Shown here: positions 2,354 through 2,817 of the stretch, piece after piece
Numbering within the stretch: position 1 is the first letter of the stretch
How the letters are laid out: the number at the start of each line of letters is the position of its first letter
Sequence record: NC_041937.1
DNA: 64,000 nucleotides
Reading direction: 5' to 3' (one strand)
DNA from: Escherichia phage V18
The notes under the pieces: generated by a model
What the model saw: only the letters and a program-made list of their open reading frames with translations
Told to the model about the DNA's origin: nothing
Database searches by the model: none
Translations under genes and position numbers: made by a program

Positions 2354-2817
2354 GTGGAAGACGGACGTTTAATGAAGTCTGAACGCAGGCTTATTGTGCA
2401 ACTGATCCCAGAAACAGCTTGGTATAATAACCTCCGAAACGCTGTGAAGGAGAGTGAGTGGGATAAGATCCGCAAGAAGTGCTATAGAGAAGCCAACTAC
2501 ACTTGTGAGGTGTGTGGCGGTAAAGGCAGCAAACACCCAGTGGAGTGTCATGAACTTTACACTTTCGAAGAGGGAGTGATCCGGCTTGTCGGACTGATAG
2601 CGTTGTGCCAGATTGTCACACATCGGTGCATCCTGGGTTAGCAAATATTCGTGGAAAGTATGCTCAGGCAGTTAATCAGTTGGCTAAGGTGAATAAGATC
2701 ACCAAAGGTATGGCAGAGGCGTATTACCGAGACTGCTTTGCAGAGTGGCGTGAGCTTAGTAAAGTTCCAGAGTGGAAGACTGACTTTTCGTGGATAGAGG
2801 GTTACCTTGATGGCTAA
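2354..2817 (+). pseudogene. zinc-binding CxxC...CxxCH (HNH-like) protein with reading frame broken near 2605-2610
   Basis: ORFs 2354-2641 and 2605-2817 overlap in different frames; one extra C in tgcca would give the contiguous motif LIALCPDCH after CEVCGG. Confidence 0.35.

Follow-up and report, generated by a model that had tools for sequence, protein, structure and literature searches.

A conserved HNH-type gene split by a single missing base in the Escherichia phage V18 record, probably through a sequencing or assembly artefact

Positions 2354 to 2817 of the window (the 64,000-nt stretch of the Escherichia phage V18 record NC_041937.1 analyzed here) constitute one conserved gene for an HNH-type (beta-beta-alpha-metal) nuclease-like protein of approximately 154 aa. 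As judged from the class of events to which it belongs, the split of this gene is probably an artefact in an error-rich record: the C missing at 2608-2609 would be one of many errors of sequencing or assembly, and the actual V18 phage would make the intact protein.

The split gene

The lesion reads TGCCAGAT in the window (2606-2613) and TGCCCAGAT in relatives; i.e., a CCC run lacks one C, and this loss is the single indel in 492 columns when JohannBauhin, nimi, and bov10K2 are aligned to the window. The preliminary description had proposed that a single missing base splits one gene into two overlapping ORFs and that an extra C would give LIALCPDCH in one ORF; the ORFs are as described there, and the alignment with relatives confirms the one-C indel and the repaired reading. 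With one C inserted, the sequence runs through LIALCPDCHTSVHPG in a single 154-aa protein. The two ORFs (Table 1) share 37 nt, and the downstream ORF lies in the -1 frame, with the codons GCG TTG TGC CAG ATT in the upstream frame and GTG CCA GAT TGT CAC in the downstream frame at the junction. The upstream ORF terminates in GLIALCQIVTHRCILG (also given as CEVCGGKGSKHPVECHELYTFEEGVIRLVGLIALCQIVTHRCILG) followed by the stop codon, and the downstream ORF reads (V/M)PDCHTSVHPG, i.e., (V/M)PDCHTSVHPGLANIRGKY, in which the true continuation of the HNH-like gene begins at CCA 2608. Homologues of 57-61% identity share the N-terminus M(E/Q)DGR, which favors the GTG at 2354 as the start codon; a Shine-Dalgarno-like stretch, AAGGGGGA, is located directly 5' of the ORF that begins there.

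The 5' fragment retains Cys51-x-x-Cys54 and the H61-P-V-E-C-H66-E67 block and is out of frame past Cys85, where it ends in QIVTHRCILG. The 3' fragment encodes P86-D-C88-H89, H93-x-G95, and a C-terminal helical domain containing the invariant Asn114. The break is situated between the codons of the invariant residues Cys85 and Pro86, and the invariant Pro86, Cys88, His89, and His93 are lost. Because the frameshift takes away the helix that carries the His residues, along with half of the Cys4 site, the 89/95-aa fragment, read literally, should be non-functional.

Table 1. Coordinates of the split gene, its neighbors, and other frame-split sites in the window
Feature	Position	Strand	Remarks
Upstream gene, small putative membrane protein	2138..2344	+	Same orientation
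5' fragment, HNH-like gene	2354..2641	+	95 aa from GTG 2354; 89 aa from ATG 2372
3' fragment, same gene	2605..2817	+	-1 frame; mechanical ORF from GTG 2605, 70 aa
Lesion, CC for CCC	2608..2609	+	Third base of the Cys85 codon (TGC) and first two bases of the Pro86 codon (CCA); net -1 shift
Downstream gene, hypothetical protein	2810..3100	+	ATG overlaps the stop of the intact HNH gene by 8 nt (ATGGCTAA)
Frame-split sites	7684/7690, 16547-16863, 19252, 27634, 27895, 29962, 35782, 39885		N6-adenine methyltransferase (7684/7690); class III ribonucleotide reductase, NrdD (16547-16863); PhoH (19252)
Frame-split sites, continued	40437/40561, 41705, 42508, ~43220, 47073, 51709, 58248-58267		Primase/helicase (58248-58267)

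Both fragments are open, and GTG 2605 could in principle serve as a start codon; a natural split, in which polypeptides of 89/95 aa and approximately 70 aa assemble into a two-piece nuclease, is nevertheless very improbable. On direct reading of the sequence, no Shine-Dalgarno-like stretch precedes GTG 2605, the break falls inside the invariant zinc-site block L84-C85-P86-x-C88-H89, at what the structural model predicts to be the junction of strand 2 and the helix, and no such split is present in the other genomes (109 relatives; 240 phage records). A functional two-piece protein was rejected on these three grounds.

Conservation and genomic context

A megablast search with positions 2300-2900 returned 118 phage records, all of rV5-like phages (Vequintavirus), with identities of 90-99.7%, and 117 of the 118 cover the locus (at least 80% of the query); in nearly all of the matches, a span of 602 nt corresponds to the 601-nt query. 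Nineteen records labeled "Campylobacter phage" (MG065644-MG065690), for which Campylobacter jejuni is entered as the host, show 97-98% identity over the same positions; their genomes measure approximately 135-143 kb, and the host labels look doubtful. The protein is undivided in 231 of 240 phage records, which include phages of Escherichia, Cronobacter, Salmonella, Klebsiella, Erwinia, Pectobacterium, Proteus, and Acinetobacter, with identities of about 38-50% in other genera. The HNH-like gene is conserved in large enterobacterial myoviruses (Vequintavirinae and allies) and in many bacteria.

The records of JohannBauhin, nimi, and bov10K2 show one CDS of 148 or 154 aa at the locus, labeled "HNH endonuclease" or "putative homing endonuclease," and QXV81325.1 (JohannBauhin) and QHR73032.1 (nimi) are the products of the same gene at the same locus, with DNA identities of 97-99.7%. 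The V18 record is alone in having the 1-nt deletion, whereas the gene is intact in its rV5-like relatives. The repaired protein is 98% identical over 100% of its length to the intact cluster P0001 (174 sequences; E = 3.8e-102). Substitutions among the aligned close relatives are synonymous, with four silent changes and no replacement in nimi, and the 208 nt located 3' of the lesion are 100% identical in DNA to JohannBauhin and bov10K2, which indicates that the gene has not decayed.

The gene order ligase, endolysin, small membrane protein, HNH-like gene, hypothetical protein, hypothetical protein, and 5'-exonuclease is shared by the window and the rV5-like phages. Annotations of relatives contain the same overlap with the following gene (CDS 2012-2302 against 1555/1573-2019, in locus coordinates), and in view of this 8-nt start/stop overlap, translational coupling between the two genes is possible.

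P0002, a 136-aa metagenomic member of the family from an ENA contig of 9,355 bp, has an in-frame deletion of 18 aa that removes CGGKGSKHPVECHELYTFE; the first CxxC thereby loses its second Cys, and the catalytic His block is gone. This deletion suggests that natural inactivation of the HNH-like gene is possible, unless it too arose as an artefact of assembly.

A homing endonuclease typically has a sporadic pattern of presence and absence, which is not what is seen here. The gene occupies one fixed locus in the 117 of 118 Vequintavirus records and is undivided in the 231 of 240 phage records, and mobility of the homing type was rejected on this basis. A different ORF of 684 nt, present in nimi and rV5_ev147 (coordinates 587-1270 in locus L002 and 2284-2967 in locus L006), is situated at the junction of the endolysin and small membrane-protein genes, which corresponds to 2074-2138 of the window. 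It is annotated as a putative HNH endonuclease in nimi and as a hypothetical protein in rV5_ev147. Neither the window nor JohannBauhin or bov10K2 has this ORF, and such a sporadic pattern is typical of a homing endonuclease and contrasts with the fixed HNH-like gene.

Uniqueness of the deletion

When a 71-nt query centered on the site was used, the deletion was absent from 109 related Vequintavirus phage records: none of the 109 matched at 99% identity or more, and the span was 72 nt in all 60 of the 109 that were listed. The same query had no match in complete E. coli genomes. In a pattern scan of metagenome contigs, the deleted 24-mer gave 0 matches, compared with 3 for the intact 25-mer used as the positive control; pattern scans of IMG/VR found neither sequence (0 matches each) and are uninformative. 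The 89-aa truncated product forms a singleton cluster among approximately 15 billion proteins, and the product of the 70-aa 3' ORF is absent from the same collection.

The 89-aa product from ATG 2372 is exactly the annotated V18 protein ASJ80443.1/YP_009602315.1. Two more broken products of the window are likewise exactly V18 proteins: a 121-aa PhoH fragment (ASJ80468.1) and a 568-aa primase/helicase (ASJ80554.1), which is truncated at its N-terminus and has 692 aa in relatives. The window thus belongs to the published genome of V18, an rV5-like myovirus of the genus Vequintavirus.

These searches also bear on recoding, in which programmed -1 ribosomal frameshifting or transcriptional slippage would yield the full-length protein despite the missing base. 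Formally, the arrangement is that of a -1 event, with a downstream ORF in the -1 frame and an overlap of 37 nt; however, the junction (G TTG TGC CAG) contains no X XXY YYZ slippery heptamer, and a run of CC is far too short for polymerase slippage. The relatives have the gene in a single frame with the extra C (deletion in 0 of 109), so that a conserved signal for recoding is lacking, and it is implausible that one genome alone would have such a site. We rejected recoding on the absent heptamer, the CC-only run, and the single-frame relatives, and its probability is practically negligible.

Indels across the V18 window

The whole window was compared with two complete relatives, JohannBauhin and rV5_ev147, the latter serving as the control. 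In a tblastn search with 141 JohannBauhin CDS, 16 were frame-split in the window versus 2 in rV5_ev147, and 15 of the 16 genes are intact in rV5_ev147. The broken genes include those for primase/helicase, PhoH, N6-adenine methyltransferase, and NrdD, the last of which contains a cluster of seven indels. Set against both references, the window has 82 private indels, with 1-nt deletions (49) outnumbering 1-nt insertions (17). When isolated indels with a length not divisible by 3 and otherwise clean flanks were counted, 17 of 23 frame-breaking indels of the window fell in CDS, versus 3 of 20 that separate the two reference phages (Fisher p = 1.7e-4); the coding fraction of the window is 0.876 by annotated CDS. 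Natural frame-breaking indels avoid CDS and those of V18 do not, which is the signature of sequence error. The comparison implies that about 4 in 5 of the coding frameshifts of V18 are artefacts, and about 3 of the 17 CDS indels could be natural by reference to the control.

Relative to both references, several small indels crowd within 10-60 nt in tight clusters at 16843-16863, 31954-31972, 42750-42810, 44251-44257, 58248-58267, and 58586-58593; these have the look of contig junctions or of a low-quality consensus, not of ordinary divergence. The window lacks four JohannBauhin genes, including that of a putative 174-aa glycosidase, and contains several more only in part; the places concerned are at approximately 23180 and 24705-25220 of the window, and the segments 16482-16676, 18230-19012, and 2111-2461 of the JohannBauhin locus L004 have no counterpart. 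The V18 genome (GenBank KY683736.1) is given as 129 kb (PMC13304965), and its Vequintavirus relatives mostly have genomes of 135-140 kb. The V18 detection primers (PMC13304965) have no site in the 64-kb window, and nothing usable on the sequencing platform of V18 was found in the literature.

The PhoH-like ATPase gene is frame-split at 19022-19809 of the window (9639-10426 in locus L008). Its relatives have a perfect palindrome, CTGCATATGCAG, at the site of the lesion, which is CTGC-TATGCAG in the window and CTGCAT-TGCAG in a 137,975-bp metagenome contig (ERZ27290372 k141_1044056); i.e., two different 1-nt deletions occur in the same palindrome, and each leads to products of 121 and 141 aa. 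The two deletions could stem from a mutational hot spot or from selection, either against PhoH or against the CATATG site. In view of this independent deletion in the metagenome contig, some frameshifts of V18, and some gene inactivations in the group, may be real, which speaks against taking all V18 frameshifts as errors.

A genuine and recent loss of function in the V18 lineage or stock, which would make the gene a fresh pseudogene dispensable for lytic growth on the propagation host, is a less likely alternative. The lesion is present in the deposited record and annotated as such, V18 is viable, P0002 provides a relative with an in-frame loss of the catalytic core, PhoH is frame-broken independently in two genomes, which points to real inactivation within the group, and a very recent event would fit the undecayed downstream sequence. 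On the other hand, the deletion is unique among the 109 relatives and approximately 15 billion proteins. The record has 15 other frame-splits private to the window, including that of the primase/helicase, which is expected to be essential, and the frame-breaking indels of V18 scarcely avoid CDS, unlike natural indels that separate two sister phages. V18 is viable and is propagated as a therapeutic phage (PMC13304965, PMC7431101), which is hard to reconcile with a truly truncated primase/helicase; such a truncation is unlikely in a viable phage.

We therefore favor a sequencing or assembly artefact and call it no more than probable, since the CCC run is a weak homopolymer and no classic hot spot of error, and since the PhoH counterpart and the catalytic-core deletion of P0002 also hold the confidence at this level. 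Should the deletion be real, which is unlikely, V18 would be a natural knock-out of a fixed, non-mobile, conserved HNH-like gene; the conserved nuclease-like protein would then be dispensable for lytic growth, and V18 would be a ready-made mutant for study of its function. The main value of the result concerns data quality, as a truncated 89-aa "HNH endonuclease" stands in YP_009602315.1, in UniProt A0A220NU32, and in the BFVD model derived from it. With about 15 further broken genes in the V18 record and the therapeutic use of the phage, a corrected genome would be worthwhile.

Family assignment and comparison with HNH nucleases

The kinship with HNH/His-Me finger nucleases proposed in the preliminary description is upheld by the repaired protein. 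A profile search with this protein, set beforehand as the test that could refute the kinship, found HNH similarity: the match with PHROG 5200 ("HNH endonuclease") is end to end (E 4.2e-72), and nine further HNH-labeled PHROGs (E 5e-13 to 0.005) and the HNH region of IscB (E 3.9e-4) also match. The HNH domain of the group II intron maturase 6me0 (E 0.0045) aligns with CxxCGG, His, and CHxxVH in register. PF01844 is matched at E <= 0.01 by 28 of 94 homologues, with 3.9e-5 as the best value; the repaired protein alone scores 13.8 bits, which is below the Pfam HNH cut-off of 21.4. When the profile of the 94 homologues was searched against the PDB, the best hits were all HNH-domain proteins with the motifs in register, each matched weakly (E 0.03-0.24), namely 6me0, ScoMcrA (5zmm), GVE2 HNH (5h0m), and E. 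coli McrA (6ghc). Pfam has no model dedicated to this family, and no listed homologue has a precomputed Pfam domain over the homologous region; the sole precomputed entry is PF18974 (DUF5710), which occurs in a few longer members.

The residues Trp36, Cys51, Cys54, Gly58, Val63, Glu64, His66, Glu67, Leu84, Cys85, Pro86, Cys88, His89, His93, Gly95, and Asn114 are invariant in the 94 homologues, so that the CxxC...CxxCH arrangement noted at the outset is a real conserved motif (Cys51, Cys54, Cys85, Cys88, and His89, together with His66 and His93); His66, His89, and His93 are also invariant in a set of 48 homologues. Cys51-x-x-Cys54 and Cys85-x-x-Cys88 are predicted to form a Cys4 zinc site, as in the McrA-like subgroup, which would be complete only after repair; in the sequence as written, Cys51, Cys54, and Cys85 are kept, Cys88 is gone, and His89 and His93 are lost to the frameshift. 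In the alignment with 6me0, His66 corresponds to the second His of HH and His93 to the final His of CHkqvH, in keeping with a catalytic His on the first strand and a metal-binding His on the helix that follows the second CxxC. The conserved Asn of the H-N-H motif is absent from the family, in which the consensus at that position is xGLIALCP; the Asn residues of 6me0 (dNLvli) and 5h0m (dNLqsLC) align with Gly80 (vGLiaLC). Variants of the HNH superfamily that lack this Asn are known.

An AlphaFold2 model of P0001, which is 98% identical (pLDDT 97, pTM 0.90), places strands at residues 64-72 and 75-84, followed by a helix at 86-91, and this predicted strand-strand-helix order is a beta-beta-alpha arrangement. 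A Foldseek search of the P0001 model against the PDB gave no significant match, and the best hit (E 0.21) is not an HNH protein. Against BFVD, viral HNHc models were matched weakly (E 0.06-0.24, probability 0.5-0.93), and the search mainly returned A0A220NU32, the truncated fragment of V18 itself, which ranks first among the viral structures matched by the family.

These sequence comparisons place the product of the V18 gene in the HNH superfamily as a putative nuclease of a distinct subfamily, and the intact protein is predicted to be an active nuclease. Annotations for this family already exist in V18 and in all relatives; as HNH-type genes go, the gene is ordinary and widely annotated.

The spacing CxxC ... 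His ... CxxCH is common to the V18 family and to McrA (6ghc), ScoMcrA (5zmm), GVE2 HNH (5h0m), 6me0, and the HNH domains of IscB/Cas9, with similarities to solved HNH proteins that are all weak (E 0.0045 to 0.24). The strand-strand-helix core predicted for the V18 family would match that of canonical Cys4 HNH nucleases (PF01844), whereas the surroundings of the first His are different: this residue lies within an invariant E-C-H-E block in the V18 family and in D-H or H-H in canonical HNH proteins. In addition, the V18 family conserves an N-terminal LxxxLxPxxxWxxNxR..WD..R motif and a C-terminal VN...F...S....W..D motif, neither of which has a counterpart in canonical HNH nucleases.
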